The translations under genes were made by a program, and so were the position numbers. Of a stretch of DNA of 48,399 nucleotides, positions 1 to 16,185 are shown piece after piece (the stretch's first letter is position 1; every line of letters starts with the position of its first letter). Location of the stretch: NCBI GenBank assembly GCA_038046005.1, contig JBBSXB010000004.1:1-48399 (forward strand). Reading direction: 5' to 3'. The notes under the pieces were generated by a model. It was not told where the DNA came from. It made no database searches and worked only from the letters and a program-made list of their open reading frames with translations. This DNA comes from Nanobdellota archaeon (GTDB taxonomy: Archaea > Nanobdellota > Nanobdellia > Pacearchaeales > GW2011-AR1).

Positions 1-54
1 TAAAATTATTCGAGTTTATCTAGATGCTCCGTAGCTTGCTACGGAGAGGTTCAC
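1..54 (+). mobile_element. Repeated element end (probable IS200/IS605-like right end), copy 1
   Basis: Exact reverse complement of 48345..48398. Contains the hairpin CTCCGTAGC-TT-GCTACGGAG followed by AGGTTCAC, the subterminal hairpin + TCAC layout typical of IS200/IS605-family right ends. Family assignment is inference. Confidence 0.55.
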
Positions 55-73
55 TATAGAGCCAAATTATAAA

Positions 74-322
74 ATGAATCTAAATAAAAGAATTCTTGGA
101 AAATGCATTGCGGTTGCAGGAATAGTTGGGGTTGCTGCCACTTTAGATGGGGCGAAGGAGTTTCCAGACAGAGCAGGGTTGTCTTCCGAAGCCTACGAGC
201 AAATTTATCATGAGAGCAAAACGACTTATGCTGGAGTGGTTTCTTTATTTACATTATCTGCTGCTGCATTTGTGTATGGTACAGCAACAACAGCTAGAAA
301 TCCAGAAGATATAATAGATTAA
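74..322 (+). CDS. Small hypothetical membrane protein
   Basis: 82-aa ORF with two hydrophobic segments. Confidence 0.55.
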   Translation: MNLNKRILGKCIAVAGIVGVAATLDGAKEFPDRAGLSSEAYEQIYHESKTTYAGVVSLFTLSAAAFVYGTATTARNPEDIID

Positions 323-1185
323 GCAAGCAAAGCATATAATATGCTGGCAATTATGATTATTGCGGCGACAATATTTCTCCAATCTATTTTTTCTTTTAGA
401 AATTTCCATGCAAACAAATATATGAAAATCGGACTGAGCATTACCAAAAGGGTTGTTAAGATTACCCCTAGTTTCAAATATCCATAATACAATAGTACCC
501 TGAATATCACCCAAATTGCCGATGATGCGAGAATTTCAAACTTGACTCTTTTTGTCTTTATTTTTTTGAAATTTGGCCTGAAAATTATTATGCTGAATAT
601 GAAAATCATCAAGCATCTGATGAAATAAAATGTTAATGGGGAGTAATAATTTAATATGAGCCTTGAAAGAGCCAGTTCGAAAGCAAAGAAAAGCGCGCCT
701 AAAATTGCGAATATGAAATATCTGTTGAATTCGAGATGATGTTTTCTTAAATGGGAAAAAACTAAAGCGCCTGCTGCAATCAAGGCAGGAATAACAATTT
801 TGGCATTCCTTTCATATAACGCCTGGCCGAAAATAAAACTAAACAAAATTGCCAAGAGTATTGTGAAAAAAGGTTCTAGTAATCTAGCCGGTTCTAAATT
901 TGTTATCTTTTCCCATTTCAAAGAATAAAAAGCAAAAGCGTTTGCAAGGACAGATGCAATAATTACTACAAGAAATATCAAGATGTTTTTTAGTTCGAAA
1001 GCACCGGGGTTTGTTTTCCAAAAAAACAGGATGAGTGGGGCCATTACCACGACTATTCCAAGAAACGATGCTGACTGATAAAGCTTGAAGTCTATCTTTC
1101 TTACTCTTAGAACTAATTTATCAAGCATTGTTGCAGTTGCACCTGCCATTGCTCCAAACAAAGCCACAAAAAAACTAAAAATCAT
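319..1185 (-). CDS. EamA/DMT-family transporter
   Basis: 288 aa, about 10 TM helices in two repeats; DMT-like motifs (LEPFFTILLA; LSPIFIYLFAWKFLKEKI). Confidence 0.85.
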   Translation of the reverse strand: MIFSFFVALFGAMAGATATMLDKLVLRVRKIDFKLYQSASFLGIVVVMAPLILFFWKTNPGAFELKNILIFLVVIIASVLANAFAFYSLKWEKITNLEPARLLEPFFTILLAILFSFIFGQALYERNAKIVIPALIAAGALVFSHLRKHHLEFNRYFIFAILGALFFAFELALSRLILNYYSPLTFYFIRCLMIFIFSIIIFRPNFKKIKTKRVKFEILASSAIWVIFRVLLYYGYLKLGVILTTLLVMLSPIFIYLFAWKFLKEKIDWRNIVAAIIIIASILYALLA

Positions 1186-1283
1186 TTTGCCTCTTCTTTA
1201 TTAAAACAAGGGAATAACGTTTAAAAGGTTGTGGGAGAAAGTTTAAGTTTTTAAAGCATTAATTCTAATAAAAGTTAGCAATC

Positions 1284-1355
1284 GCGCAAGTAGTACAGTG
1301 GTTAGTACATTTCGTTGCCAACGAAGTAACCCGGGTTCGAATCCCGGCTCGCGCA
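1284..1355 (+). tRNA. tRNA-Gly(GCC)
   Basis: Cloverleaf: acceptor GCGCAAG/CTCGCGC (one A-C mismatch), anticodon arm TTTCG-TTGCCAA-CGAAG, T arm CCGGG-TTCGAAT-CCCGG; no encoded CCA. Confidence 0.95.
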
Positions 1356-1448
1356 TAGCACCATCTTGGCATTTCGATGTGAACTGGATTTTACCGCGAT
1401 CCATAATTTGTCCATTTTGTATATAAAATAGGGCAAACACACAGAAAC

Positions 1449-1709
1449 ATGAAAAAAGACCCATACAATATCCATGAAAGATACACCCAGTGGGAAGAAA
1501 GTGCCAAAGAAACAGGAATTCAGGGGATAAGCAAATACAATTCTGATTTAATTATGAAATATCTTGAAGATATGAAGCATGGAATTAATATTTCTCAAGC
1601 TAATGTAAAGGGGTCTAGGAGTTTCATAAGGCTTGACACAATAAGAAAAAATGGAACAAAAATCTCGTTAATATTGTTTTCCAGAAACCAGAATACGCAA
1701 CTTTTATAA
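1449..1709 (+). pseudogene. Probable N-terminal fragment of a tRNA-adjacent tyrosine integrase
   Basis: MKKDPY..ERY..W...ISKYNSDLIMKYLEDM..G.N....KGSRS..RL resembles from memory the N-terminus of DPANN site-specific integrases. No catalytic domain; sits immediately after the tRNA. Confidence 0.55.
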
Positions 1710-1731
1710 ACAGTTTTTTAATCTTGTTGCT

Positions 1732-3297
1732 ATGAGTGCGGACGAAAAATCTCCTAATGAGAACACAAACTTGGTTTTGAAAAAAGTAAAAACAGTGCTA
1801 CCAGGAGTATGGAAGTACTTAACTTCTCCAAGATATCTCTGTTCACTGGATGATAAACAGCCTTCTTATCTAGACACAAATACAACTGATTTAATTTTTT
1901 GGTCCGATTTATTCTTTAAAGATTCAAAATTGCCAGATATAATTGATGATAAACCTTCAAGAGTGAAAAACCTTAGATTCACTTTGGCAATGGCTCCTGA
2001 ATTTGGATCTATTGAGAGTGTTGTTCGTTCAAACCCAGAAGTTTATAGAAATGGGTTTGCTGATCAGAATAGAATAGTTTCGTGGCACCAAAGCGAAATT
2101 GGAGATGGAGGGGGAATAACAGTTTCGACATCATTTGAAGCGCTTCACTTGGATGAGATAAGTTATCTCTATCAGCAATATGCAAATGCTGTTGAAAGAA
2201 TAAACTCTCCAGAAAGCAGAGATTTTGTTCGAAAAAAATTAAGATCAATTTCTGAACTATTGCCTGAAATTAAAAAAGAAGAAAAAGATGAATCAACAAA
2301 AAAGAAAATTAGATGGTTTAGGAATGATTACTATCAAAAGTTAGTAGAGCTTTATCTTGAAAATCCAACTCTAGAACTAAGAAATTTAGTTTCACTAAAA
2401 TTTAAACCATTTGTCGATGTAGTTGCAACTAATGTACACAAATCAATGAATTCTTATGGTGCTAGACCGCAAAACAGGAATGGAAATAAATCTTCAAAGA
2501 CTTTTGGAGAAAGTGCCATAACTTCAATAAGCATTCTCGGTTTGGAAGATATGAAACAGTCTGGATTTAGTGGCTTGCTGACTTGTATGCCAAATTACAA
2601 GCCAGAAAGAGAAGCAAGGTTTACCACTTACGCGGGATATAGAGTTAGAGGAACTATTCTCGATGAAATAAGAGAGCTATCTCCGCATTCTAGAGGAGAC
2701 ACTTTGATGAACCGAAGAATAAAAAAGGCAATTGAGACTCTCTCTCAAGTTGAATTCAAAGAACACACTGATGCATTTACTATCGCAAGTTACTTAGGAG
2801 AGGATGCAGAAACAATAAGGTCAGCTATTTTAAATCAAATTAATCGTACCCCACAATCATTAGATGACATTGTTGGAGATTCTAATTCAGATGACAAGAT
2901 AGTAACAAGAGTTGAAACACTTGCTCAGACTCATTTTGCAGATGCTCTCCAAAAGCTAGTTTCAGAAAGCCATTATAGAGAAGTTCTGGAAAGTTTTAGA
3001 TACCTCACTGAACAAGAAAGATTAGTTGTAGGTCTATACTATGTAAGCAGCTCCGATACTCTCACTGAGCTAATGAGCAATATTCCTTCTAACAATGGGC
3101 AAAAAGAATCAATCTACAAAAAATATGGTTTCAGAGATTATTTATCTTTAAAAGATATCTCTACATTAATGGAGATTAGTGAATCAAGAGTATCTCAGAT
3201 AAAGACACGTGCTGAGAGTAAGTTAAGACATAAGCTGGGGGTAATATTGGAGGCTGAAAGATTAAGTAAAAAACGAACAAGGTTGACTGTACAATAA
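1732..3297 (+). CDS. FliA/WhiG-like sigma70-family protein with long N-terminal extension
   Basis: Region 2: DMKQSGFSGLL..YKPEREARFTTYAGYRVRGTILDEIR. Region 3: IASYLGEDAETIR. Region 4: LTEQERLVVGLYY...LSLKDISTLMEISESRVSQIKTRAESKLR. Confidence 0.85.
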   Translation: MSADEKSPNENTNLVLKKVKTVLPGVWKYLTSPRYLCSLDDKQPSYLDTNTTDLIFWSDLFFKDSKLPDIIDDKPSRVKNLRFTLAMAPEFGSIESVVRSNPEVYRNGFADQNRIVSWHQSEIGDGGGITVSTSFEALHLDEISYLYQQYANAVERINSPESRDFVRKKLRSISELLPEIKKEEKDESTKKKIRWFRNDYYQKLVELYLENPTLELRNLVSLKFKPFVDVVATNVHKSMNSYGARPQNRNGNKSSKTFGESAITSISILGLEDMKQSGFSGLLTCMPNYKPEREARFTTYAGYRVRGTILDEIRELSPHSRGDTLMNRRIKKAIETLSQVEFKEHTDAFTIASYLGEDAETIRSAILNQINRTPQSLDDIVGDSNSDDKIVTRVETLAQTHFADALQKLVSESHYREVLESFRYLTEQERLVVGLYYVSSSDTLTELMSNIPSNNGQKESIYKKYGFRDYLSLKDISTLMEISESRVSQIKTRAESKLRHKLGVILEAERLSKKRTRLTVQ

Positions 3298-3298
3298 A

Positions 3299-4201
3299 AT
3301 GTCAAAAACAAAATTAGAAAGTTCTAGAAAAGAATTAGTCAATCAGGCTTCTGGAGTTTGGCCTCTATCAATGACAGAATGGTCACAAAGAAGAAATCTT
3401 CCGAGTCTTTTTACAATAATTGGTGAATTTGGCTCTTGGGAAAATTTTGAAAGAGAGATGAGAGGAAAAAGTAGAAAGGATGATGAAATTAAAACTCCTA
3501 GAGTTGAAAAAACCAGGGTTGATTATGAGGTTAAACCCAAAAGAGATGTTCATCCTCCAGATAAGTATTTGTTAGGAGAAAGAAAAGCTCAGAGTGTTCC
3601 AGACGCAAGACCACCTAAAAATTATTTTACATTAGACGAAGTAGTCGGTTTTTTAGAATTTCCTGAACAAGAGTTAGAAAGAAATAGATTAGCAGAAAAA
3701 ATTTCTTTGTTATACACTTCCGAAGGAGATTTAGCCTTAAATGTGGACAGCTTGGAATATTTAAGCAAGGTTAAGTATGATGGTTTTATCTCCTTTGATA
3801 ATTTTCGTTCTCTTTTTAGGCTAGATAAAAAAGAAGCTAAAGGAGTGCTAAGAGAATTTGAAATGGATTCTACTGCGGACAAAGTTAGGTTAGATTCTAA
3901 ATTTTGGAGTTATACGGTCCATCATTTTAATCAAATGCCGAATACAAATCATTTATATTCTGGAGAGGCATTGTTAAATCGAGAAGAAGCAGCCAAGTTT
4001 TTGAGCGGAGGCTTAAAAAATCTTCAGATAAGCCGTGAAATTCTGGGAAAAATGATAGAAGACGATTTATTTGGGTTGAGAGGACTTGAAATAGATGGGG
4101 GATTTAGAGTTCAATTGTTGTATAATGCGAAAAGCGCTGTCGGAAACGAATCTTTGAGAAGAACTGTTCTTACAAAATATCCTCATTTAATTCAATCGTA
4201 A
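3299..4201 (+). CDS. Hypothetical protein, possibly DNA-binding; starts 1 nt after the sigma-like gene stop
   Basis: 300-aa ORF; N-terminal LPSLFTIIGEFGSWENF resembles the homing-endonuclease-associated repeat (PS..T...FGSW). Confidence 0.7.
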   Translation: MSKTKLESSRKELVNQASGVWPLSMTEWSQRRNLPSLFTIIGEFGSWENFEREMRGKSRKDDEIKTPRVEKTRVDYEVKPKRDVHPPDKYLLGERKAQSVPDARPPKNYFTLDEVVGFLEFPEQELERNRLAEKISLLYTSEGDLALNVDSLEYLSKVKYDGFISFDNFRSLFRLDKKEAKGVLREFEMDSTADKVRLDSKFWSYTVHHFNQMPNTNHLYSGEALLNREEAAKFLSGGLKNLQISREILGKMIEDDLFGLRGLEIDGGFRVQLLYNAKSAVGNESLRRTVLTKYPHLIQS

Positions 4202-4240
4202 CGCAACTTTTATATACTGTTGTTCTTCAATTTTTCTACA

Positions 4241-4555
4241 ATGAAAGACCTAATAAAAAGAATTTTTTCAAGAGAAACAAAGCCAAAAATAGAGCTTGAT
4301 GAAAATGACAGAGAAGCTTTTCGTATAGTTGCAAGGACTTTCAATTTTGATGCTAATCCTGAAAATGTTGACTGGAGAAATGCCTGGGGCTTATCACAAG
4401 ATTCGGGATTGTCAGAAAAAACAGTCTCAACAATAGTTGAAAGATATAAAGGAGTATACTTTGACGAATCTCCATTAGTAATTGCTGGAAGCAAGTTTTA
4501 TAGATTAACAAATGAAGGTTTTCAGCTTTATAATACCTTAAGAGAAAACAGTTAA
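4241..4555 (+). CDS. Small winged-helix-like protein, paralog A
   Basis: ATG at 4241 aligns with the paralog B start; TTTTATATA upstream; WRNAWGLSQDSGLSEKTVSTIV..FYRLTNEG is wHTH-like. Confidence 0.75.
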   Translation: MKDLIKRIFSRETKPKIELDENDREAFRIVARTFNFDANPENVDWRNAWGLSQDSGLSEKTVSTIVERYKGVYFDESPLVIAGSKFYRLTNEGFQLYNTLRENS

Positions 4556-4602
4556 AAATTATACACCACAAATTTTATATACTTTATAGTTTAATTCTTT
4601 TC

Positions 4603-4935
4603 ATGTTAAAAGGTCTTATAAGTAGAATTTTTGGAGAAGAAGCAGAACCAGAAATGGACTTTGATGAAGAAGATCGGGAATCTTTTCTCATTGTGGCAGG
4701 AGCCTTTGAAATTAATGAAGGCTCTGAACAAGAAGACTGGAGAAGTGCTTTTGGTTTAAGCAAAGATGCAAAATTTCCAGGACTAGCTGTTGCAAGGATA
4801 CTTAATAGATATGATGGAACTTATTTTGAGAAAAGTCCACTAGAACCGAGAGGAATAGGAATTTATAGATTAACTGCTGAAGGTGTAAGTCTTTATAATT
4901 CGCTAAGAGAAAACGTCGAGACAAAGACAGCCTAG
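4603..4935 (+). CDS. Small winged-helix-like protein, paralog B
   Basis: Similar to 4241..4555 (DRE.F.IVA..F, DWR.A.GLS.D, YF..SPL, YRLT.EG..LYN.LREN). Confidence 0.75.
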   Translation: MLKGLISRIFGEEAEPEMDFDEEDRESFLIVAGAFEINEGSEQEDWRSAFGLSKDAKFPGLAVARILNRYDGTYFEKSPLEPRGIGIYRLTAEGVSLYNSLRENVETKTA

Positions 4936-5056
4936 ATAAATGTTCTATTAACTTCTGTAATGTTTAAAGGCTAGGTTAATTTTTTTATACTACATATTTT
5001 AAGATATATTTTCAATTATAGAAATCTTTATAACACCTTATCTTAGTAGAATTGAG

Positions 5057-5455
5057 ATGGTACGTTATGAAAAATCAGAAGACAAACCGCTTTCAGAAGT
5101 TATTGAAGGCAGAAAAAATCATTATCTTTCTAAAGTTGTAAGCGCCTTTAATTCAGTTTATGCAAGTGGTGACTTTGAATACATTGGACAGTTTGAAGGA
5201 GCTGTACTTAAGTTAAGCGAATCTGCAATAGAAGGTAAAAAACTTGAAGGACGAGTTGGTAAAGCTACACCAATTACGTCAAGAGAACCTTCTGAGAGAA
5301 GAGTAGGAAGAAAGCCAAAGTTAACTGCAGAAGTATATGTTCAAGCTGTTAAGGATCAATTGACAAAAGAAGATCTTGCTCAAAATTATAGTTTTGACGG
5401 CAGAGCACTTGGACCTTTAAAAAGACATCATGGTGCATTGAAAAAAAGTGATTAA
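5057..5455 (+). CDS. Hypothetical protein
   Basis: 132-aa ORF with upstream TTTATAA box. Confidence 0.65.
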   Translation: MVRYEKSEDKPLSEVIEGRKNHYLSKVVSAFNSVYASGDFEYIGQFEGAVLKLSESAIEGKKLEGRVGKATPITSREPSERRVGRKPKLTAEVYVQAVKDQLTKEDLAQNYSFDGRALGPLKRHHGALKKSD

Positions 5456-5492
5456 AGATAATTCTTGTTGAACAGAATTTAAGAACAACTAT

Positions 5493-5563
5493 CCATTTCA
5501 TCTCGACAATATTTATAAAGTCCAGCCATCAACGACAAATCGAATAAAATGCTTAAGGAAAAA
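5493..5563 (+). repeat. Intergenic island repeat, copy A
   Basis: 63/71 identical to 6660..6730 by manual alignment. Confidence 0.85.
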
Positions 5564-5673
5564 GCGGATAACAGTGACTGTTACGTCTACCAATCAATAA
5601 TATTCTAGTTATCTGTAGCCGTAATTACGTCCACATTAGAAAAATTTAAATACTATGTAGACGTAAGAAAAAC

Positions 5674-6138
5674 ATGGTATATACTGAAATAAAGAAAATT
5701 AATGGGAAAAAGTATTACTACAGAGTTTTGTCGGTCAGGACTGGAAAAAAAGTGTCAAAGAAAAGAAAATATCTTGGAATTGACCTAAACAAAGAAGATT
5801 TATCTACAAAAGAAATGGTGGCAGATAAAGAATTGGTTGCTAACACTGTGAGTAAAGAAATTGAAAGAATTAAAAACAAAATAAAAAATATACTAAAAAA
5901 AAATAAGGTTAAGAGAGCAGGAATCTTTGGCAGTTATGCAAGAGGGGAACAGAAAGATAATAGCGATATTGACATTCTTGTAGAAATAGATGATAAAGAG
6001 ATGAGCTTGCTGAAATTTATTAATTTTAAGAACAAATTAGAAGAGATACTAAAAAGTAAAGTAGATTTGGTTGAGTATAAATTAGTAAGGCCAGAAATTA
6101 AAGAGAACATATTTAGCGAGGAAATAAGAATAATATGA
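5674..6138 (+). CDS. Minimal nucleotidyltransferase (MNT/MntA-like antitoxin) with basic N-terminal extension
   Basis: GIFGSYARGE...SDIDILV and VDLV motifs; overlaps the HEPN gene start. Confidence 0.9.
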   Translation: MVYTEIKKINGKKYYYRVLSVRTGKKVSKKRKYLGIDLNKEDLSTKEMVADKELVANTVSKEIERIKNKIKNILKKNKVKRAGIFGSYARGEQKDNSDIDILVEIDDKEMSLLKFINFKNKLEEILKSKVDLVEYKLVRPEIKENIFSEEIRII

Positions 6139-6479
6139 AAAGAAACTATTGGATGTTTATAAATGACATTCTTGAAAATATTGAATTGATTGAAAAATCA
6201 ACTTCAAAAATATCAAAAACTGAATTTGAAGAAAATAAAGATATAATAGATGCAACCCTTAGAAGGCTGGAAATTATAGGCGAAGCTTCTAAAAACTTGC
6301 CTTCTTCATTAACTAAAAAATATTCAGAGATACCTTGGAAAGATATAGCTGGGTTTAGAGACATAATGATTCATGCATATTTTATAGTAGACATAGATAA
6401 AGTCTGGGAAGTTGTCAGAAAAGACATTCCAGATTTAAAAAAGAAAATTTCTGAGATTAAAAAAGAAAAAATTGAATAG
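6135..6479 (+). CDS. HEPN/DUF86 (HepT-like) RNase toxin
   Basis: LEIIGEASK and IPWKDIAGFRDIMIHAYF (Rx4H motif). Confidence 0.9.
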   Translation: MKRNYWMFINDILENIELIEKSTSKISKTEFEENKDIIDATLRRLEIIGEASKNLPSSLTKKYSEIPWKDIAGFRDIMIHAYFIVDIDKVWEVVRKDIPDLKKKISEIKKEKIE

Positions 6480-6484
6480 AGTGA

Positions 6485-6658
6485 AAAGATAAAAAGTACG
6501 GCGAAAAATTAATTGAAGAGATATTTAGAAAAGGGCTTCTGAACGGAAACACTGTTGGCATTAATGAAGATGGAAGCGAGGACATTTATGAATGTGATAT
6601 TGAGAGAGCAATAAGAGAGCTTAAAGGTGAAAAAATCAAAAATTGGGAATGGGATTAG
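6485..6658 (+). pseudogene. Start-less C-terminal gene remnant
   Basis: Open frame KDKKYGEKLIEEIF...IKNWEWD* is preceded by an in-frame TGA and has no start codon. It ends 1 nt before repeat copy B. Confidence 0.4.
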
Positions 6659-6659
6659 G

Positions 6660-6730
6660 CCATTCCTTCTCGACAATATTTATAAAGTCCAGCCACCAAC
6701 GATAAATCAAGATAAATGCTTAAGGAAAAA
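6660..6730 (+). repeat. Intergenic island repeat, copy B
   Basis: 63/71 identical to 5493..5563. Just downstream, TCACACGAGGAT is shared with copy C. Confidence 0.85.
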
Positions 6731-6800
6731 CACATCACACGAGGATGCCACAAAGGCAGTAAACAGAAAGAATTTTATATCTAAAAAGTATAGGTTAATC

Positions 6801-7394
6801 ATGGATTACAATTCAATAAAGAAAGAGATAAAACTAGATAGAAGAATAAATGAGCTTGACAAATTTGTTATTGACTTCTGCAGTTTGCTTGATAAATATG
6901 TCTTGGTTTCTGGCTATGTTTCAATATTATTCGGAAGATCAAGGGCAACAGAAGATGTAGACTTACTTATTCCTAAAATGAATTTTGAAGAATTTAATAA
7001 GTTATGGAAGAAAATTCATGATTTTGGGTTTGAATGTGTGAACACTGAAATACAAAAAGAAGCTTTTGAGATTATTAGTGAAGGACACAATATTAGATTT
7101 TCTAGAAAGGGAAAGCCAATACCAAACATGGAGTTTAAGCTAGTGCAAAATGATATTCATAAGTATTCCTTTGAAAATAGGATTAAAGTAATAATGAAGA
7201 ATAATTCTCTTTACATTTCTCCTTTGGAAATGCAGATTGTTTATAAGTTAATGTTGGGTAAAAAAGGCAATAAGAAAGACTTAGAAGATGCAAAACACCT
7301 TTATGAATTATTCAAAGAAAAGCTTAATAATAATGAGTTGCTTAAACTGGTTAAGGAATTAAATGCAGAAAAAGAGTTTAAATTAATAAGATGA
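6801..7394 (+). CDS. Nucleotidyltransferase (AbiEii/DUF6036-like)
   Basis: SGYVSILFGRSRATEDVDLLI and C-terminal KDLEDA motifs. Start moved to ATG 6801 because the track's GTG extension runs through repeat B. Confidence 0.75.
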   Translation: MDYNSIKKEIKLDRRINELDKFVIDFCSLLDKYVLVSGYVSILFGRSRATEDVDLLIPKMNFEEFNKLWKKIHDFGFECVNTEIQKEAFEIISEGHNIRFSRKGKPIPNMEFKLVQNDIHKYSFENRIKVIMKNNSLYISPLEMQIVYKLMLGKKGNKKDLEDAKHLYELFKEKLNNNELLKLVKELNAEKEFKLIR

Positions 7395-7546
7395 AAATTA
7401 ATCAAAAGGAAATAGATGAAGAGGTAGAAAGAAACTTTAAGGAAAGGTTGGAATTTATAAAATTCTGGGCAAATTATGTTAAAACACACAATGATGAAGA
7501 TTGGAGTGAACAGCAAAATATAATAATTAATTCTCAAATTGATTGA
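7391..7546 (+). CDS. 51-aa partner protein of the nucleotidyltransferase (not in ORF track)
   Basis: ATGA overlap with the upstream stop; MKINQKEIDEEVERNFKERLEFIKFWANYVKTHNDEDWSEQQNIIINSQID. Confidence 0.7.
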   Translation: MKINQKEIDEEVERNFKERLEFIKFWANYVKTHNDEDWSEQQNIIINSQID

Positions 7547-7663
7547 TCCTTTTTTCATCCACAATATATTTAAAGGTAAAGGATCGCAACACATTCAAGT
7601 TAAATAATCAAGGGAAAAGACATCACAAGATTTATAAACTAAAGTTTATTTAAATAAACTAAT

Positions 7664-8200
7664 ATGGATTGGAATAAACTAAAGTTTACTAAGCTTGAAA
7701 ATGATATTTTGGAGTTTTTGTTTAGAAATCCCACCTCAAGTTTTAACGGCAAGGAAATAGCTGACAGACTAAAGGTTTCACAGACAGCTATAGCTAAATC
7801 TGTAAAAAATCTTTCAAAAATAGGGCTGGTTAGTGTACAAAAAAAGATTCTTCTTTCTATTAAACTTAACAGAGAAAATAAAATAACATTTACTCTAAAA
7901 AGGATATTTAATATTAAAGAAATATACTCAAGCGGATTGCTAAAGGCTTTGTCTGCGGAGTTTCCTGGCTCGGCGATAGTTCTTTTTGGAAGCTATTCCT
8001 TAGGGGAGGACACAGAGGACTCTGATATTGATATTGCCATAATTGGTTATAAAGATAAATCTATTGATCTTAATATATTTGAGCGAAAGATTCAAAGGAG
8101 AGTGCAACTTCATTTTTTTAAGGAAAGCGGGAATATACATAAAGATTTAAAGGAAAATATTATTAATGGTATTACGCTTGAAGGAGCAATAAAACTATGA
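7664..8200 (+). CDS. wHTH-MNT fusion (antitoxin-like)
   Basis: N-terminal HTH (GKEIADRLKVSQTAIAKSVKNL) plus LFGSYSLGED..SDIDIAI. Confidence 0.85.
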   Translation: MDWNKLKFTKLENDILEFLFRNPTSSFNGKEIADRLKVSQTAIAKSVKNLSKIGLVSVQKKILLSIKLNRENKITFTLKRIFNIKEIYSSGLLKALSAEFPGSAIVLFGSYSLGEDTEDSDIDIAIIGYKDKSIDLNIFERKIQRRVQLHFFKESGNIHKDLKENIINGITLEGAIKL

Positions 8201-8616
8201 GAACCTTTGCAGAATTCCTAAAACAAGGATTGGTAAAGAAAAAGACGAAAGATGAGTCTAGGGCAAAAAGCCTGATCAAAGGAGCTGAAGAAAGAAAAAA
8301 AATAATGGAAAAGTATCTTCCTTTAAATGAGGAAACAGCTGTTCAGATTGTTGAAGAATGCTATGATGTTATTAGAGAGCTTTTAGAAGCTAAGTTAAGC
8401 AAAGACGGATATAAAAGTTATAATCACGAAGCTGTAATTTCATACATGACAAACCTTGGATTTTCAAGAGATGAAGTTGTATTTGTTGATAAGTTAAGAG
8501 AAATAAGGCATGGAATAAAGTATTATGGAAAGTATGTTGGTTTGGAATATGCTGAAAAAGTAAAAGATTTTTTGAACAAAATTTATTCAAAATTGAAAAA
8601 AATTGCTTCTGATTAG
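8197..8616 (+). CDS. HEPN-domain protein
   Basis: Overlaps the MNT gene; YKSYNHEA and LREIRHGIKYYG, HEPN-like Rx4Y variant. Confidence 0.75.
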   Translation: MRTFAEFLKQGLVKKKTKDESRAKSLIKGAEERKKIMEKYLPLNEETAVQIVEECYDVIRELLEAKLSKDGYKSYNHEAVISYMTNLGFSRDEVVFVDKLREIRHGIKYYGKYVGLEYAEKVKDFLNKIYSKLKKIASD

Positions 8617-8653
8617 GTGACCACGAAGAAGAAAACAAGATAGTTTGTGGTCA

Positions 8654-8741
8654 CATTCGATCCACAACCCTTAAAAAGTCCAGAGATCAACGACAAATGA
8701 CTAAATTACGCTCGCAGAAAACGGTTCACACGAGGATTCCA
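8654..8741 (+). repeat. Intergenic island repeat, copy C (diverged), next to attR
   Basis: Shares AAAGTCCAG..ATCAACGACAAAT with copy A and TCACACGAGGAT.CCA with the sequence after copy B. Confidence 0.65.
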
Positions 8742-8778
8742 TGAAGGGATGGTCGACGGCTCGCGCATCATACCTTTT

Positions 8779-9489
8779 CTATATCTTGTTCAAATCCACA
8801 CTGGCTTTTGGACCAACTCTTACACCATATCTTTTGTCTATAGAAAATACATGAACATCTTTAGAATGGTCTGTCCCTCTCATTTTCAGAACTTCAATAA
8901 ATCTCCTTCTTCTTCCGCCCGTAGCCAAATAGTAAAGAACAGATACGCTGTCAGCTTCAAATTCAACATAAGAAAGCCCCCTGTCTCTTTGATTTGTCGG
9001 AGAATGTTGCACAGTCAAAAGAGTTGTAACATCCCATTTTCTTATTATGTCAAAAAACCCTAAGATTGCCTGTCTTCTTGATTGTTCATCATCAAACAAA
9101 AGGGAAAAACTCGTGATGCTATCAACTACCATCCTTGTAATTTTGTTTTTCAGGACGGTGGATTCTATAGCTCCGCCACCTTCATCAAGCATCATTTTGA
9201 CTTTTTCAGGAGAATATTCCAAAAAAATGAATTTGCCTGTTTTTTCAGCCTTATTCAAATCCCATCCAATCTTTCTTATATTTTCGTAGAAATCCTCTTT
9301 TTTCTCTTCGAAGGTAACATACAAAACACTCTCTCCTTTTTTAAGCCCCTCAAGCAAAAACTGAATGGCAAAAATAGTTTTTCCACTTCCGCTTCCACCC
9401 GCTATAAGATTTACGGAATTCTTTTCAAAACCCCCCTCAACTAATTGATCATAGCCAGGAACTCCAGTAATAATTTTGTTTTCTGCCAT
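8779..9489 (-). CDS. KaiC-like RecA-superfamily ATPase (single domain)
   Basis: TGVPGYDQLVEGG, Walker A GGSGSGKT, VTFEE, VVDS, EVLKMRGT. Confidence 0.92.
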   Translation of the reverse strand: MAENKIITGVPGYDQLVEGGFEKNSVNLIAGGSGSGKTIFAIQFLLEGLKKGESVLYVTFEEKKEDFYENIRKIGWDLNKAEKTGKFIFLEYSPEKVKMMLDEGGGAIESTVLKNKITRMVVDSITSFSLLFDDEQSRRQAILGFFDIIRKWDVTTLLTVQHSPTNQRDRGLSYVEFEADSVSVLYYLATGGRRRRFIEVLKMRGTDHSKDVHVFSIDKRYGVRVGPKASVDLNKI

Positions 9490-9542
9490 TTGAGTTTTAT
9501 TTTTATTAAAAGAAAATCATACTTTTAAACATTGCTACATTT

Positions 9543-10508
9543 TCAAAATGAACCTCTGATACTTGCCAATATAAATTTAGAAAGTACTACTCTTATTATG
9601 AAAAATAAGAACAAACTAATTCCTACTAATGGGAAAAAATATTTTAGTCCTTCTTTTGAATCGCCTTTCCTTACCAATCCCATGACCATACATGAGATTA
9701 AATCTGAAACCACCATAAATATTATGGAAAAATAAATTACAAAATTTAGGGATATGGAAACTGAATTAAATGACAATGGAAAACTGGATGATGCACTGCT
9801 TAAATGTGGCAGTCGAGACGTTAATTCTATGACTACTTCAACCAAGACGGAGCTTAGCCCGAAAAGGACAGGAGCACCGACACCAACAGCGAAGAATATA
9901 AAAATAACATACATTAAAATTGTGGACCTAGATTTTTTTTCAAGCAATTCTTTTTCTTTCATGTTTCTGGAAGTTTGTTCCAGAAGATCCGAGATATTTC
10001 CTCCAGCTTTCAATCCTGAAATTATGAGCATTACAACTCTAGTAATTTTTTCAGATTCTATTCTTTCACTCATTTTCTTTAGTGCAAATATTATTTCCTG
10101 CCCAGTTGTTATGTCTTTTCCTGTTTTTAGTATTTCTTGGTCAAGAGGATGAAATTCCGGACGAGCCGCAAGCAAAAAGGCTTTGTCAATTGTCATTCCT
10201 GACCTAAGATTGCTGGCCATGAGTGAGATAACTTCTGGGAAAACATTTTCCATTTCTTTTATTCTATTGCTGGCCTTCAGGCTTATATTCATGTAAAAGA
10301 GAATATGGAATAAAATGAATATTAAAGGAATGAAGTAGGCATTTACATTAAAAATAAAAAATATAGTGGAGGTTACAACTGTCAAAATTATTATTAACCA
10401 AAACATGGAGTTGAAATATTTGTCTGGAGGGGTTATTACCCCGGCATTTCTTATGTTTTTTATATATGTTTTTCCAAACTTGCTAGGATATAATTTTAGG
10501 AGGTTCAT
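9543..10508 (-). CDS. Type II secretion F / TadC-like pilus membrane platform protein
   Basis: FPEVISLMASNLRSGMT and GLKAGGNISDLL motifs; multiple TM helices. Confidence 0.9.
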   Translation of the reverse strand: MNLLKLYPSKFGKTYIKNIRNAGVITPPDKYFNSMFWLIIILTVVTSTIFFIFNVNAYFIPLIFILFHILFYMNISLKASNRIKEMENVFPEVISLMASNLRSGMTIDKAFLLAARPEFHPLDQEILKTGKDITTGQEIIFALKKMSERIESEKITRVVMLIISGLKAGGNISDLLEQTSRNMKEKELLEKKSRSTILMYVIFIFFAVGVGAPVLFGLSSVLVEVVIELTSRLPHLSSASSSFPLSFNSVSISLNFVIYFSIIFMVVSDLISCMVMGLVRKGDSKEGLKYFFPLVGISLFLFFIIRVVLSKFILASIRGSF

Positions 10509-11425
10509 AGTAAGCTTGGCCTCCTTGATTTAATCAGTCCATGAAACATTATCTGAATGAACATTACAAATCCGAAAATAAAAAAGAATATCAGATATAT
10601 TATGGTTTTTGAGAAGTTTAGTATGGATGAGATTATTATGACAAAAGTTATCCCAAGTGCAGGCATAATTACTGCCATCAACATGTAAAACATTATTAAA
10701 GGATTCAATTTTCCGCCGTAACTTTGGATCTGGATTGTCTGCTCTTCTATAAGATTGTCAATCCCTTCTTGGATAACTGATGTCAGGTCTGTTCCAGATC
10801 TCATTCCGTTGCTGATTTGCCATAAAACCCTTCTAAAATATTTTGAGGTGTTGAGTTTTGCGTATTTTTCTATAGCTTCTATCTGGGGGATACCTGAATT
10901 AATTTCTCTTGCAATTTTTTTGAATTCATCACTGGCTTCACCATATCCAGATTCTGAAATGTTCATTATTATGTTAAACATTAAAACTCCTGAATTCAAC
11001 TGAACCATCATATCCTGGAGAACTGGAATAAGATTTCTTTCAATGTCTCTTTCTTTGTTTAAGGCAAATATTTTTGGATAATTTATCTGATTCATAAAAA
11101 TTAATCCTGAAATAAGAATCGCTGTTAAAAGACCATAAATGAAAAATGAGCTGTTAGCAACCAAGATGGCGGCTGCTGGAGAAAGATAAGGCATAACCCC
11201 AAGAATAGATGTTATTAAAACAGAAAAAGCCAATAGATTCAGAAAAAAAGCCCTATAACAAATTGCAAGGTATTGTCTTCTGTCCAAATCGATTCCCGAG
11301 CCAGCAAGATAATTATCTAGTTTTGATCTTTTTTGTCTTGTGTACTTCAAAAATCTCTTGCTTCTTCTTTTCAGGATTTCTACGTCAGAAACAGTGAATG
11401 GAATTTTAAATTTCATTTTAAACAA
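10505..11425 (-). CDS. Type II secretion F / TadB-C-like pilus membrane protein
   Basis: EFKKIAREINSG and ISNGMRSGTDL motifs; TM helices; operon position. Confidence 0.9.
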   Translation of the reverse strand: MFKMKFKIPFTVSDVEILKRRSKRFLKYTRQKRSKLDNYLAGSGIDLDRRQYLAICYRAFFLNLLAFSVLITSILGVMPYLSPAAAILVANSSFFIYGLLTAILISGLIFMNQINYPKIFALNKERDIERNLIPVLQDMMVQLNSGVLMFNIIMNISESGYGEASDEFKKIAREINSGIPQIEAIEKYAKLNTSKYFRRVLWQISNGMRSGTDLTSVIQEGIDNLIEEQTIQIQSYGGKLNPLIMFYMLMAVIMPALGITFVIIISSILNFSKTIIYLIFFFIFGFVMFIQIMFHGLIKSRRPSLL

Positions 11426-13379
11426 CTGCCTTTTTTTCCAATATCTCCTCGACTTTGTTATACTTTATTATGTTGTCCAATCTTTCCCGGTCAGTGTAAT
11501 AATAATTCATTAATTTTCCAAATGATTCCAAATCTCTTATTTTATTTTTTATCAGCCAGTCAAATATTGATTTTTTATACCTTAGATTTTGCTCAATCTC
11601 TTTTTCTTCCATTCCCGTATTTCTGCTCAGCTGGTCAAAGAATGCCATGCTTTTGTTGTGAGCTACAAAAATATCTTTGTCTGGCACCCATCTGTAAAGC
11701 AAGTTGGATGTAACATTTTCTTTTCCTATAATAAACTCTCCAAGCTGAGACACTCTCCTTATTCCTCTTCTTCTGTCTCTAAACATTACGACATTGAGAT
11801 GAACACTTGTTAAAAGTAAAGGTGGAATGCTTATTGGAGGGTTTACTAGTCTTCTTATTGTATCGTTAGACGTATCAGCGTGAACTGTTGAATAAACTGA
11901 GTGACCGGTGTGCATTGCCTCAAAAAGAACTTCAGCTTCTTTTTGCCTTCTTATTTCACCAAGTACAATCCTGTCAGGCCTCATTCTAAGAGAGTTCACC
12001 AACAAATCAAGCATTGAAACCTCACCTTTATTCTCGACATTTGAGGTTCTTGTTACTAAAGGACACCAATAAAGAAATTTTGGAAGCATTAATTCTCTTG
12101 TATCTTCTATGCTTATGACTCTATGGTTTGGAGGAATGAACGGCATGCAAGCATTTAGACAGACTGTTTTTCCTGAAGCCGTTCCTCCTGAAAACAGTAT
12201 ATTCATTTCGTATTCTATTCCGAGCCACAAAAGTGCGGCAATTTCTTTGCTTATTGTGTTGTTTTGTATAAGGTCAATAATTGTCCAAGGATCTCTCGAG
12301 AATTTTCTAATTGTTATAGTATTCCCTCTTGTTGCAATAGGATAAAGTACGGCATTTGCCCTGTCTCCTGTAACAATGTGTGCATCTAAAAGAGGATTTA
12401 AGACGCTGATCTGTCTTCCAACCCTTCTAGAAATAATGTTCGCGTAATTTATTACATCGTCCTCTGAGTTTAGAACTATGTTTGTTAAAAGCCAACCGTG
12501 TTTCTTGTGGTACACTCTTATTTCCTTACTGTTAAGAATTACAATTTCCTCCAGGTTAGGATCATTCATCAAAAATTCTATCTTTCCAAGACCCAACATT
12601 TCCTGCATCAATACACCAATAAGGAATTCTTCTGTCGCTTTTGGAATTCCTGGAAGTTTTCCGTTTAATAATCTGCTTGCGTCTTTCATAAACCTTAGTT
12701 TAATTTTCTGCACTGATTTTTGATCTATGATTTCTCCGACGGCAATAGTCGTAACAGCAACTAAATCTTTTCTTATCTCTTCAAGCAGAGCATGAGTGGC
12801 AATGTCAATTTGTGGTATATAAAGCCCATATATCAATCCAAGATCACTCTTCTCTATCCTTATGCCAACTTTAGCCCTATCAATTTCAATCTCATAAACT
12901 TCAAGCTCTTTCCCAGTTGTTTTTTGTATAGTTATCTTAACATCACTAACAGGCCCGGTTGCTTCTGTTTTTTGTATCACTGCAGCAACTTCCTGAGGTT
13001 TTGGGGCTTGGGTTTGGATAATTTGCTGTAAACTTTTTGGCTGGACTAAACTTGTTGTTGTATTAGGAGTGCTAATTTTGGGCTTTAAATCAAAGATAAC
13101 ATTTTTTGTCGTTGACAATGGCGGACTTTTTTCTTCAGGTTTCTTTTGGTAGCCCAACGGAACAAGTCTTGGGAGGGGCTTTCCTGGATGAATTATTTTT
13201 ATCTTTGGAATAATCCCTTTTTTCATTTTTTCATAAATAGAAATAATTTTTGGAATTTTAGCATAAGGGTATCTATTCTTCAACAAAATTTTCCGTATTT
13301 CTTGCGGAGAATATCCTCTATGCATTGCTTCCCTTATCCAATTGACAATTTCTACGCTTTTATGGCTCTTAATTATCAT
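11418..13379 (-). CDS. VirB11/TadA/FlaI-family pilus assembly ATPase with N-terminal extension
   Basis: GGTASGKT, SIEDTREL, LRMRPDRIVLGEIR, AMHTGH..STVHA. Confidence 0.95.
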   Translation of the reverse strand: MIIKSHKSVEIVNWIREAMHRGYSPQEIRKILLKNRYPYAKIPKIISIYEKMKKGIIPKIKIIHPGKPLPRLVPLGYQKKPEEKSPPLSTTKNVIFDLKPKISTPNTTTSLVQPKSLQQIIQTQAPKPQEVAAVIQKTEATGPVSDVKITIQKTTGKELEVYEIEIDRAKVGIRIEKSDLGLIYGLYIPQIDIATHALLEEIRKDLVAVTTIAVGEIIDQKSVQKIKLRFMKDASRLLNGKLPGIPKATEEFLIGVLMQEMLGLGKIEFLMNDPNLEEIVILNSKEIRVYHKKHGWLLTNIVLNSEDDVINYANIISRRVGRQISVLNPLLDAHIVTGDRANAVLYPIATRGNTITIRKFSRDPWTIIDLIQNNTISKEIAALLWLGIEYEMNILFSGGTASGKTVCLNACMPFIPPNHRVISIEDTRELMLPKFLYWCPLVTRTSNVENKGEVSMLDLLVNSLRMRPDRIVLGEIRRQKEAEVLFEAMHTGHSVYSTVHADTSNDTIRRLVNPPISIPPLLLTSVHLNVVMFRDRRRGIRRVSQLGEFIIGKENVTSNLLYRWVPDKDIFVAHNKSMAFFDQLSRNTGMEEKEIEQNLRYKKSIFDWLIKNKIRDLESFGKLMNYYYTDRERLDNIIKYNKVEEILEKKAVV

Positions 13380-13957
13380 TTCTTTTTAACCTCTTTTTTG
13401 GTTTTCTGGTCTTGGTTTTTTTCACCTTTGTTTTCAGTGTCTCCATTTTCTTCAGTCACTGATTCATTGGAAATTTTTTCTTCTGTAACTATCACCTCTG
13501 GATCTGAAAACGCCGGATACTCTATACTTACAAGGTCGTGTTCTTCTAATATTTTTCCCCACTCCAAAGCCTGCTCTTTTGAAATTGAAAAAGCTGTTGC
13601 AATTGTGGATGTGTTCAAGCTTTTTTTGTCTTTAAGCAGGTTGTAAAAAACATCAAAGTTTGTTTCTGCCTTTGATTTTGGAGATGGAATTACAAAATCT
13701 TTTATTTTTTCTTCTTCTTCTTTTCTGTGCTTTAAAAATTTAGTATAAGCAAAAATAACAACAACTAACAAAATAACCCATTGAAGAATGAAAGCAAGTA
13801 AAGTCATGTTGATACCTAGTGGAAGATTTCCTCCTATCACTGCTCCTGAAATAGGAGCCCTTCCAGATTTCTTACTAAAATAAAGAAAAAAATTTAATCC
13901 GAAAAATACTGCAATAAAAACTCCCATTATTACAGGAGTCACCTTCTTTTTTTCCAT
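13376..13957 (-). CDS. Membrane protein with C-terminal HTH-like region, first gene of pilus operon
   Basis: Two TM segments; overlaps the ATPase start. Confidence 0.75.
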   Translation of the reverse strand: MEKKKVTPVIMGVFIAVFFGLNFFLYFSKKSGRAPISGAVIGGNLPLGINMTLLAFILQWVILLVVVIFAYTKFLKHRKEEEEKIKDFVIPSPKSKAETNFDVFYNLLKDKKSLNTSTIATAFSISKEQALEWGKILEEHDLVSIEYPAFSDPEVIVTEEKISNESVTEENGDTENKGEKNQDQKTKKEVKKK

Positions 13958-14024
13958 ATCAAAAATGTTTATATAGTTATTTCATTTTAAAAGGAGAAGA
14001 GTTATATAAATCTTACGAATATAT

Positions 14025-14435
14025 ATGAAAGAAAAAAGAGGGCAGGTTGGGACGGAGTATATGATTATTGTTGGATTTGTTACGATAGCAATAACCTCAA
14101 TATTAGTTTTATCTTTATTTTATTCCAATCAGATAAAAGACAGACTTAGAGCCAACAATATTGAAACTTTTGCGGTTCAGCTTATTGATTCTGCAGAGAC
14201 GGTGTTTTTTTCAGGAGAGCCAAGTAAATCAACTGTCAGACTTTATCTTCCTGAAAATGTCATCAATGTTAATATAACACAGTATGAAGTTACCATATCA
14301 AGTTTATCTAGCGGTGGAACACTGAATATAAGAAGTTTTGAAAGCAAAGTTCCACTTAGCGGAGTTATTAATGGTGCAGAAGGAACGAAAGACATTATTC
14401 TTCAAGCAACTTCCACTTATGTGCAGATAAATTAG
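14025..14435 (+). CDS. Pilin-like protein, class III signal peptide
   Basis: KRG/QVGTEY followed by a hydrophobic helix. Confidence 0.85.
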   Translation: MKEKRGQVGTEYMIIVGFVTIAITSILVLSLFYSNQIKDRLRANNIETFAVQLIDSAETVFFSGEPSKSTVRLYLPENVINVNITQYEVTISSLSSGGTLNIRSFESKVPLSGVINGAEGTKDIILQATSTYVQIN

Positions 14436-14437
14436 TT

Positions 14438-15067
14438 TTAATTACAAATTTTTTGTGAGGGAATACTTACTACATTGTAAAAGCAGTTTATATCTTTGTT
14501 TGCTGTCCCATCAACTCCGGCACTTTGAACTCTTGCGTAATCTTGCATTGGAGCATAATCTTGAGGTCCTAAATTAAATGTGAAATCGGCTTTTTTAATT
14601 GAATCACTTATACTTTTCCCATCCTCAACAAAAGATAATTCTACAACAAAAGTTCCAGATATTGAAAAATCATTGTTATGTATTTCTGAAGAACAAGTGA
14701 CTGTTTTGTCTGTGCATATTGCCCCATCGTAGGAATTGCAGTTATATTCCCTGTTTATGTTTATTATAGAATGGTAAGCGGATATTGTATTACAGCTTTG
14801 GCCAGATGATGAATCTCCACTTCCACCACCTCCGGCACCATCGCTTGAACCAGATACGCTATTTTCTGGAACTTCCTCTCCATTTATTATGGTAGTACCA
14901 TTATTTCCAGAATTGCCCGTGCTTATAACTACCAATTTATTTACGATTTTTGTTATTGGATTTTGAGGGTCTTTTAGAATGAATATTAAAGAGATGGCTA
15001 TCCCTACCACTAGGACAGCAATGGAAATAATCAAGAATAATTTTGGACTTCCTCTTTTATTCTTCAT
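14438..15067 (-). CDS. Membrane-anchored Cys-containing surface protein
   Basis: Probable start MKNKRGS.., one TM, Gly/Ser linker, six Cys; start chosen by inference. Confidence 0.65.
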   Translation of the reverse strand: MKNKRGSPKLFLIISIAVLVVGIAISLIFILKDPQNPITKIVNKLVVISTGNSGNNGTTIINGEEVPENSVSGSSDGAGGGGSGDSSSGQSCNTISAYHSIININREYNCNSYDGAICTDKTVTCSSEIHNNDFSISGTFVVELSFVEDGKSISDSIKKADFTFNLGPQDYAPMQDYARVQSAGVDGTANKDINCFYNVVSIPSQKICN

Positions 15068-15151
15068 GTAGGATTTAATTAATAGATATATATAAAGATA
15101 ATGATTTATCACTACACAAAATTTTAAATATCAACTATGTGTGTTATTTTT

Positions 15152-15225
15152 GTAGAAGGCGAGGCTCCGGCTTCGTTCGGGGGCTTAAGCAACCGATAGA
15201 TCATCTTAGGATGATTTACTTCTAC
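15152..15225 (+). ncRNA. Candidate structured small RNA
   Basis: Closing stem GTAGAAG/CTTCTAC, GC-rich internal hairpin, and ATCATC-TTAG-GATGAT hairpin; TTTTAAATA box about 22 nt upstream. Confidence 0.4.
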
Positions 15226-15353
15226 GTAAATTATAAAGATAATTTTATATATCTGTTTTTCTATTAGAATACACCAAAAATATTGTCGAAAATTTATTTT
15301 TTTTATAATTAAAAGAGGGTTTGCTATATTTCAGCTAAAATAAAAAGAGGAAC

Positions 15354-15743
15354 ATGTTCATAAAAAAAGCGCAGGGAGTCATAGAATTTATAATCTTATT
15401 CGGGGCAGCACTTTTGTTTTTTGTAGTCATAATTGCCACGATACAGGAAAGCCAGTCTCAAAAAAATAAAGAAAAAGAAAGATTGGTGGCACAAAATGTT
15501 GCATTGGACATCCAAGATGAAATAAACCTTGCAGCCGGATCTTCAGAGGGATATGAAAGGAATTTTACAACACCAGAAAATATAATGGGATTAGATTATG
15601 ACATAAATGTTTCCCAAGGGTATATTTTTCTTATTCTTGGAGACTATGTTGTGGATTACAATGTTGTTCAGGTTGTGGGACAAATACAAAAAGGAAATAA
15701 TTTAATAAAAAAAGAAAATGGAACAGTCTACCTTAATCCTTAA
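15354..15743 (+). CDS. Minor pilin-like protein
   Basis: KKA/QGVIEF class III signal. Confidence 0.85.
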   Translation: MFIKKAQGVIEFIILFGAALLFFVVIIATIQESQSQKNKEKERLVAQNVALDIQDEINLAAGSSEGYERNFTTPENIMGLDYDINVSQGYIFLILGDYVVDYNVVQVVGQIQKGNNLIKKENGTVYLNP

Positions 15744-16185
15744 CAAAAAAAATAAATTGGGGCAAGTATGGAGTTTGGACATAATCATAGCTGGGATAAT
15801 AATCACTACAGGGATTATAATACTTTATATTTATGCAATAAACTATACTAATCAGTCTCAGGAAAATTTAGATTACTTATTTTATGAAGGCAATTTGGCT
15901 TCACAATTAATTTTAAGCGAGGAGAGTTTTGGGGTATTTGATGAAACTGGCCAAATAAATCAATCAAAGTTGGATGATTACTACTATAATTATGACTCTA
16001 AAAAAAATGTTTTAGGAATAACAAAAGATTTCTATTTTGAGTTAGACAATATAACTGAAGCTAATGGCACTACTGTTTCTTACATAGGGAAAAAAAGCTC
16101 TACGACAAGCAATTCTATCAAAATAACCAGAATTGCAATTTATAAAAATCAGCCAATTAAATTTGATTTGTATGTCTGGGATTGA
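15718..16185 (+). CDS. Minor pilin-like protein
   Basis: KLG/QVWSLD class III-like signal. Confidence 0.8.
   Translation: MEQSTLILNKKNKLGQVWSLDIIIAGIIITTGIIILYIYAINYTNQSQENLDYLFYEGNLASQLILSEESFGVFDETGQINQSKLDDYYYNYDSKKNVLGITKDFYFELDNITEANGTTVSYIGKKSSTTSNSIKITRIAIYKNQPIKFDLYVWD

Follow-up and report, generated by a model that had tools for sequence, protein, structure and literature searches.

The window analysed here, a stretch of 48,399 nt from a Nanobdellota archaeon (GenBank assembly GCA_038046005.1, contig JBBSXB010000004.1), carries at 1732..3297 (+) an intact open reading frame (ORF) of 521 amino acids (aa) that belongs to the sigma-70 family. It is very probably a genuine and intact sigma-70 gene of group 3, FliA/WhiG-like, located on the chromosome of an archaeon of ultra-small type. 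Sigma factors typify transcription in bacteria; for archaeal polymerases, TBP, TFB, and TFE are thought to be the only initiation factors. An earlier note on this DNA, made from the sequence alone, had described a bacterial-type FliA-like sigma gene in an archaeal genome; profile searches, the match to FliA in structure 6pmi (chain F), and the TBP, TFB, single Rpo1, and Dph2 genes of the host bear this out. Sigma-70 genes in DPANN archaea have already been published (Castelle et al., 2021; PMC8204110), so the phenomenon itself is not new. What is new is local: a minor FliA-like lineage with an orphan N-terminus and an insert in region 4, its residence in a degenerate element at a tRNA-Gly gene behind a duplicated archaeal promoter, and a weak computational hint of contact with the clamp of the archaeal RNA polymerase.

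Profile searches, which the earlier note had proposed, place the protein in the sigma-70 family. Pfam Sigma70_r2 matches residues 271–315 with 30.1 bits (cut-off 24), and Sigma70_r4 matches the region 4 helix-turn-helix (HTH) at residues 468–500 with 32 bits (cut-off 24.1). Region 3, which had been listed beside regions 2 and 4 in the earlier note, has no Pfam Sigma70_r3 match at E ≤ 0.1 and is recognised from FliA profiles that align across residues 269–438 and from helices 348–396 of the structural model. The NCBIfam superfamily model TIGR02937 is passed with 65.2 bits against a cut-off of 42.9. The top NCBIfam families are FliA (NF005413, 124.4 bits) and FliA_WhiG (TIGR02479, 123.1 bits), and the ORF misses both subfamily cut-offs (201 and 189.6, respectively); the protein is thus FliA-like and no FliA orthologue. 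Among solved structures, the best sequence match is the E. coli FliA chain of the sigma-28 holoenzyme (6pmi_F, E 1.4e-17), which aligns with residues 269–438 and 467–508, and PHROG 351 is matched with E 1.9e-19. Of 39 positions with at least 80% conservation across 54 FliA-like representatives, 26 are kept, including all seven invariant ones (G281, R304, G307, D311, R314, R486, and Q489). That positions for core binding and DNA recognition are retained suggests a sigma-like protein that works, as far as sequence can tell. The gene has a G+C fraction of 0.347, compared with 0.34 for the host, and its codon usage correlates with that of core genes at r 0.79, compared with 0.42–0.47 for the wrong frames.

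An AlphaFold2 model built on a 61-row alignment has a mean predicted local distance difference test score (pLDDT) of 71.7. In a Foldseek search of the PDB with this model, all 50 listed matches are sigma chains with a probability of 1.00. Their template modelling (TM) scores by query are low (0.16–0.29), owing to flexible links between the domains and to 140 residues without a usable model. Residues 1–139 are effectively unmodelled (pLDDT <50) and are followed by helices at 140–241, the last three of which (187–241, ten-residue block means 77–96) resemble regions 1.2/2.1. After a low-confidence loop insert between regions 2.1 and 2.2 (242–270), the model continues with sigma-2 (271–341), sigma-3 (348–396), and sigma-4 (405–520). 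The insertion of about 30 aa that had been read before the region 4 HTH is confirmed as 28 aa, residues 439–466, between region 4.1 and the region 4.2 HTH. FliA residues 201 and 202 flank it in the alignment, and it is modelled as two short helices (441–465).

The N-terminal extension is indeed an orphan, and its length, given in the earlier note as about 200 aa, is closer to 186 aa, as the sigma-2 helices start near residue 187. No relative of it was found among 1.84 billion representatives, where matches to the protein begin no earlier than about residue 255, apart from one that starts at 241; the sole other item in that search was an identical 74-aa fragment. Atlas searches with residues 1–195 returned nothing usable (feature scores at most 0.88, TM at most 0.35). 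The chance of 186 stop-free codons at this base composition is P ~4e-7. In a sample of genomes from the phylum, many Sigma70_r2 matches lie inside open frames of 400–1030 aa, so long extensions on archaeal sigma proteins seem to be common and not peculiar to the gene at 1732–3297.

The window is the entire contig C4 of a genome (G000) of 875 kb in 15 contigs, which is 98% complete with 0.55% contamination. The genome encodes TBP, TFB, and exactly one Rpb1-type gene (archaeal Rpo1). A genome search found no bacterial rpoA, and no bacterial core enzyme is encoded; the only polymerase is archaeal. The N-terminal Rpo1 match lies at G000:C3:36165-37184, and in most of the genomes compared, this match falls within open frames of 1133–1203 aa. 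An archaeal Rpo1N is usually shorter, so the largest subunit may here depart from the customary split. The contig of the sigma gene also encodes Dph2, a GluRS domain of archaeal type, and a type IV pilus ATPase together with T2SSF genes. In line with the read-coverage check advised in the earlier note, Logan contigs from two studies (four DNA runs) were compared with window 1–12000. A contig of one run (X3) spans 26–7682 without differences and includes the EamA gene, the tRNA-Gly gene, the sigma gene, and 4 kb beyond. All four runs have uniform read depth over island and flank, and a chimera is ruled out as far as these data go; the runs may be the source of the assembly itself, so the comparison tests the assembler and not the biology.

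The archaeal TATA box reported earlier upstream of the gene is present: TTTTATAAA occupies 1702–1710 within ACGCAAC-TTTTATAAA at 1695–1710. Its centre lies 26 nt upstream of the ATG at 1732, a distance typical of archaeal TATA boxes and their start sites, which implies a leaderless mRNA. A Shine-Dalgarno sequence is not visible. The promoter is one copy of a 24-nt direct repeat, and the second copy is found at the same distance before the ATG at 4241. The 14-nt promoter core occurs exactly at only two sites in the 875-kb genome, with one further site that has a single mismatch. The two copies bracket a two-gene module of the sigma gene and ORF 3299–4201. In a congener, the homologue of the small gene that follows the second copy is preceded by a different promoter. 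Among 301 genomes, the 300-aa ORF is present in this genome only. All 10 of its nearest structure rows in the Atlas carry HTH_17, but each has a TM below 0.3, which makes a multi-HTH (HTH_17-like) fold no more than a lead. By BLASTP, the sigma-gene neighbours in the window and at four other loci (L006, L007, L008, and L022) share no likeness, so that an excisionase-type HTH protein as a recurrent partner of sigma genes is suggested by nothing beyond one weak HTH_17 match (E 0.045) and the Atlas lead.

We tentatively favour the reading that the sigma protein is a regulator inside the archaeon that docks on the clamp coiled-coil of RNA polymerase, and hold it to be possible rather than probable. 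The archaeal machinery would transcribe the gene from its predicted promoter, which comprises a TFB recognition element (BRE) and TATA box, as a leaderless message together with the orphan 300-aa gene, and the product would act within the archaeal cell as a transcription regulator. It would bind DNA through the conserved region 4.2 HTH and regions 2.3/2.4, while region 2 would dock on the clamp coiled-coil, a site homologous to that of bacterial sigma and used in archaea by TFB, TFE, and Spt4/5. From the clamp, the protein may redirect initiation or compete with these factors, and its orphan N-terminal extension may gate this activity by analogy with region 1.1. One study describes the clamp coiled-coil as a docking site that TFB, TFE, sigma70, Spt4/5, and NusG have in common (PMC3223566). 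Clamp docking is a third option beyond the stand-alone regulator and the effector on a bacterial polymerase that the earlier note had considered, and co-folding gives it weak support. Sigma-2 residues 187–345 (61-row alignment) co-folded with residues 1–340 of the genome's own Rpo1 (27-row alignment) score 0.55 (runs 0.63, 0.44, and 0.55), compared with 0.00 for the best of three controls, a result rated as weak support. The runs share at least 36% of contacts, and the partner pLDDT is at least 64. Of 80 solved complexes, 58 attained the mark set for this assay, as did 2 of 110 mismatched pairs; with scores of 0.60 or less, only 7 of the 80 solved complexes did so, along with both passing mismatches.

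Several findings weigh against clamp docking. Structures of sigma-beta' complexes are already solved, so the weak pass may be a memory of them, and the co-fold gives no interface. Thirteen of the 39 conserved positions are changed, including the D-W-x-P-R-S-x-R stretch after region 2.4 (D317S and R324T). The 28-aa insert sits where sigma-4 meets the bacterial flap, and we know of no archaeal counterpart of that contact. Sigma-28 promoters (TAAA-N14-16-CCGATA) are not enriched, with 5 sites compared with 12 in the control, although this is the E. coli-type consensus and the specificity of the protein may differ. Finally, the full-length protein was matched in no other genome searched, and the gene is an orphan.

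A somewhat unlikely alternative is a stand-alone regulator, in which the region 4 HTH, perhaps with region 2, represses or activates genes of the island or the host without contacting RNA polymerase. The recognition helix of region 4.2 is highly conserved (E484, S485, R486, and Q489), other HTH-like genes lie nearby (ORF 3299–4201 and two small paralogues), and the same 24-nt promoter stands before the sigma operon and one of the small paralogue genes. The positions of regions 2 and 3 for bacterial core binding and strand opening are also kept, however, although a simple HTH regulator could do without them; the weak support of the co-fold for clamp contact points in the same direction.

The nearest relative of the protein among the 1.84 billion representatives (P0002) has 328 aa and is 35% identical (E 5.7e-26). 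It shares the region 4 insert, and on its 2-kb metagenome contig it is directly followed by an ORF for a type IV secretion system (T4SS) pilin or TrbC-like protein. A word-index search found no homologue of similar length. Back-translated pattern scans detected no relative of the sigma protein in genome contigs or viral contigs and no relative of P0002 in genome contigs. No close relative was found in IMG/VR, and GenBank phages gave five weak matches (22–28% identity, all unannotated).

A phylogeny had been proposed in the earlier note in order to look for a DPANN-specific clade. The tree built here has 100 rows, comes from a quick search with support from the Shimodaira–Hasegawa-like approximate likelihood ratio test (SH-aLRT) only, and contains representative ('rep') rows without taxonomy; its 33 loci comprise 30 of the higher-scoring order-wide region 2 matches and 3 protein matches. 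The sigma protein pairs with P0002 (SH-aLRT 89), and this pair joins a 585-aa protein of genome G040, from a different family of the same order (SH-aLRT 93). Of the 35 archaeal sigma sequences, 28 group in one clade together with E. coli RpoD, RpoS, and RpoH (SH-aLRT 99), a share that is biased towards RpoD-like sequences because the loci are mostly higher-scoring region 2 matches. Four other archaeal sequences are similar to extracytoplasmic function (ECF) sigma factors, and a single tandem pair forms the sister group of the RpoD-like clade. Judged by these sequence comparisons, the gene belongs to a minor FliA-like lineage that is separate from the RpoD-like majority.

The gene lies within a region that is missing from a genome of the same genus (G001). 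Window 319–1356 (EamA and tRNA-Gly) matches G001:C3 at 85%, and window 8783–15995 (a KaiC-like gene and a pilus locus) matches it at 82%. In G001 the two blocks are only about 770 bp apart, with an unrelated 228-aa ORF in the gap, so window 1357–8782 is a 7.4-kb island. The first ORF of the island, with 86 aa, shares 54–59% identity with the N-terminal parts of ORFs of roughly 400 aa at other places in the genome. One of these, a 404-aa paralogue that itself has no Pfam or PDB match, aligns over 239 residues with the Pfam-positive integrase at 41866–42984 (E 4e-15). The 86-aa ORF has no direct match to this integrase of the window; the link runs via the 404-aa paralogue and identifies the ORF as a truncated integrase beside the tRNA. 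A second copy of the last 26 or 19 nt of tRNA-Gly with at most three mismatches, which at the far border would mark an attachment (att) site, was not found. No virion or conjugation genes are present within the island. The island adjoins a tRNA, is missing from a relative, and retains an 86-aa remnant of the integrase next to the tRNA; it is the decayed remains of an element integrated at tRNA-Gly.

This setting raises the alternative, which we consider unlikely, that the sigma gene is a passenger from an integrated plasmid or virus, where it served the programme of the element, and that it now has no role for the cell. The truncated integrase and missing att repeat, the absence of the island from the congener, the orphan status of both the sigma gene and its operon partner, and the T4SS pilin gene beside the nearest relative are all in line with such an origin. 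A 2025 paper describes two sigma-like genes ('rpoS') carried by viral contigs of DPANN archaea, of which one is a prophage (PMC12647753). A frame of 521 codons that is intact with its conserved residues, an intact promoter, and a base composition brought to the host level speak against a gene without function.

The sigma gene is no isolated case. Within the order, 97 of 301 genomes (29 of the 82 high-quality ones) have a Sigma70_r2 match, and so do 128 of the 301 genomes, each at least 90% complete, in a phylum sample. This sample includes one unpublished genome (G557) with one match, on which the prevalence does not depend. The search was positive in 10 bacterial control genomes and in 0 of 4 archaeal ones. 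According to Castelle et al. (2021), sigma-70 genes (fam00359) occur in DPANN, mostly in Woesearchaeota; that study ruled out mis-binning, found no anti-sigma factors, and left the mechanism open (PMC8204110). Archaeal copies lie on contigs of up to 760 kb, and all three sigma classes are found as ordinary chromosomal genes. A survey of 105 neighbours of 19 sigma ORFs in 18 of 20 loci, the other two (L064 and L068) having been dropped as their sigma ORF was unflagged by the hidden Markov models, yielded Pfam families of archaeal housekeeping functions such as thermosome, RtcB, deoxyhypusine synthase, L15e, proteasome, PolB, and tRNA synthetases. Among the best 25 of 138 matched families, no neighbour family recurs more than three times, and single integrases are possible.

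Two further observations concern these copies. Four genomes of genus g69 (L054, L056, L062, and L063) have RpoD-like sigma genes of about 280 aa within the same run of neighbour ORF sizes, which suggests vertical inheritance. Tandem sigma pairs occur in many genomes, and one genome (G069) has four copies on a single 760-kb contig.

The proposal of the earlier note that the protein may be an effector, sent into a bacterial host or prey to hijack its core RNA polymerase, gains no support and appears very improbable. In its favour, the residues of a working bacterial sigma are kept, and PMC8204110 regards archaea of this kind as probable symbionts. Against it, the N-terminus, judged by eye with no predictor run, has no signal peptide or secretion-linked domain. 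The pilus locus at 8783–15995, described earlier as next door, is core DNA conserved in G001, which lacks the sigma island; it is therefore not linked to the sigma gene. No secretion gene recurs among the 105 neighbours of the 19 sigma genes within the best 25 of 138 matched families, and sigma genes of all three classes are ordinary chromosomal genes. Bacterial contamination or a chimeric contig, suggested by the position of the gene only 1.7 kb from the contig end, has a negligible probability and is refuted as far as the data go by the spanning X3 contig without differences and the even depth, the flanks that match a congeneric archaeal genome, Dph2 and the archaeal pilus genes on the same contig, and the archaeal promoter upstream of the gene.

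Table 1. Coordinates of the sigma gene, its domains, and the surrounding island in the window
Feature	Position	Strand	Basis
tRNA-Gly(GCC), left anchor of island	1284..1355	+	ARAGORN, Rfam
7.4-kb island missing from same-genus genome G001	1357..8782	.	Comparison with G001
Truncated N-terminal fragment (86 aa), tyrosine-recombinase-like integrase	1449..1709	+	Likeness to ~400-aa paralogues
BRE/TATA promoter, copy 1 of 24-nt direct repeat	1695..1718	+	TATA 1702-1710
Sigma-70 family gene, FliA/WhiG-like, 521 aa	1732..3297	+	Profiles, PDB sequence match, model, Foldseek
Orphan N-terminal extension, aa 1-186	1732..2289	+	No homologue; aa 1-139 pLDDT <50; aa 140-186 helical
Sigma-2 domain, aa 187-345, with loop insert aa 242-270 (2455-2541)	2290..2766	+	Pfam, FliA alignment, model, conservation
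Sigma-3 region, ~aa 346-400	2767..2931	+	FliA profile alignment; model helices 348-396; no Pfam r3
Sigma-4 domain, aa 401-521, with 28-aa insert aa 439-466 (3046-3129) before region 4.2 HTH	2932..3294	+	
Orphan 300-aa operon partner	3299..4201	+	Start 2 nt after sigma stop; no Pfam/PHROG match
Promoter repeat copy 2, 21/24 identical to copy 1	4201..4224	+	Same distance before ATG at 4241
Small protein paralogue 1, 104 aa from ATG	4241..4555	+	70% DNA match elsewhere in G001; weak PHROG HTH match
Small protein paralogue 2, 110 aa	4603..4935	+	ORF list; repeat family
MNT nucleotidyltransferase / HepT toxin-antitoxin pair	5674..6479	+	Pfam NTP_transf_2/Polbeta, HepT-like
HTH-nucleotidyltransferase gene and overlapping 139-aa ORF	7664..8616	+	

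Besides the genes listed in Table 1, the island carries a 132-aa ORF. A TATA-containing repeat of 38 nt occurs three times (5503–5540, 6670–6707, and 8661–8698; 82–100% identity) upstream of nucleotidyltransferase-type modules, which points to a shared promoter or operator for the toxin-antitoxin-like genes of the island. A pair of small paralogues (107 and 113 aa) is also present in G001 (L041, G001:C3:206249-208626), beside a ribosomal L24e-like gene. This locus is far from the tRNA-Gly of G001, so the small paralogues are not tied to the sigma gene. A second truncated copy of the same integrase N-terminus (a 63-aa frame) is located at G000:C8:88131-88277 (L106), about 200 bp after a tRNA-Glu; the pattern of a tRNA with an integrase stump is thus found at another site of the genome too.

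Two other parts of the window resemble mobile DNA. The tRNA-His gene at 41737–41809 is followed 57 nt later by a 372-aa Phage_integrase gene (41866–42984), and the G+C fraction is 0.28–0.30 over 42–46 kb; the stretch at 41737–44500 probably represents another integrated element, better preserved than the first. Positions 44942–45859 (−) encode a reverse transcriptase with an HTH_40 domain at its C-terminus, and an Rfam RT-16 RNA lies at 46496–46632 (−; 74.4 bits). Window 44942–46632 looks like a diversity-generating retroelement or a similar reverse transcriptase system.

With sigma genes in about a third to two fifths of the sampled genomes, their function has become a testable problem. A single sigma gene, a single operon partner, and a clear promoter make the locus described here a compact test case. 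Clamp binding, if confirmed, would show that an archaeal polymerase can accommodate a bacterial initiation factor. A wider and doubtful conjecture is that the sigma-70 proteins of such ultra-small archaea, including the one at 1732–3297, bind the archaeal clamp and act beside TBP and TFB as promoter-specific initiation or anti-initiation factors, in a hybrid bacterial/archaeal system that mobile elements could exploit to divert transcription of the host.

Four known systems invite comparison. As with the DPANN sigma-70 genes of fam00359 (PMC8204110), the gene resides on an archaeal chromosome with TBP and TFB, and no anti-sigma factor is recognised. The majority of such genes in our data are RpoD-like and lie among housekeeping genes, whereas the copy at 1732–3297 groups apart from that clade, together with P0002 and the G040 protein of 585 aa, and is located in a variable island. 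E. coli FliA (6pmi chain F) has the same order of regions 2, 3, and 4, and the FliA/WhiG motifs R-x-x-G-x-x-x-D-x-x-R and E-S-R-V-S-Q are conserved in the sigma protein. Unlike FliA, the protein has an extra N-terminus of 186 aa and inserts of 29 and 28 aa, and its gene has an archaeal-type promoter in a genome without a bacterial core enzyme, a flagellar regulon, or FlgM. With sigma factors of phages and mobile elements it has in common the PHROG 351 match, residence in an integrated element, and a nearest relative that adjoins a T4SS pilin gene; unlike phage sigma factors, it is found in an island without virion or conjugation genes, and the host polymerase is archaeal. Archaeal TFE, TFB, and Spt4/5 have no sequence relationship to the sigma protein, whose docking is only predicted, but the clamp coiled-coil to which they bind according to PMC3223566 is the same site that we propose for it.

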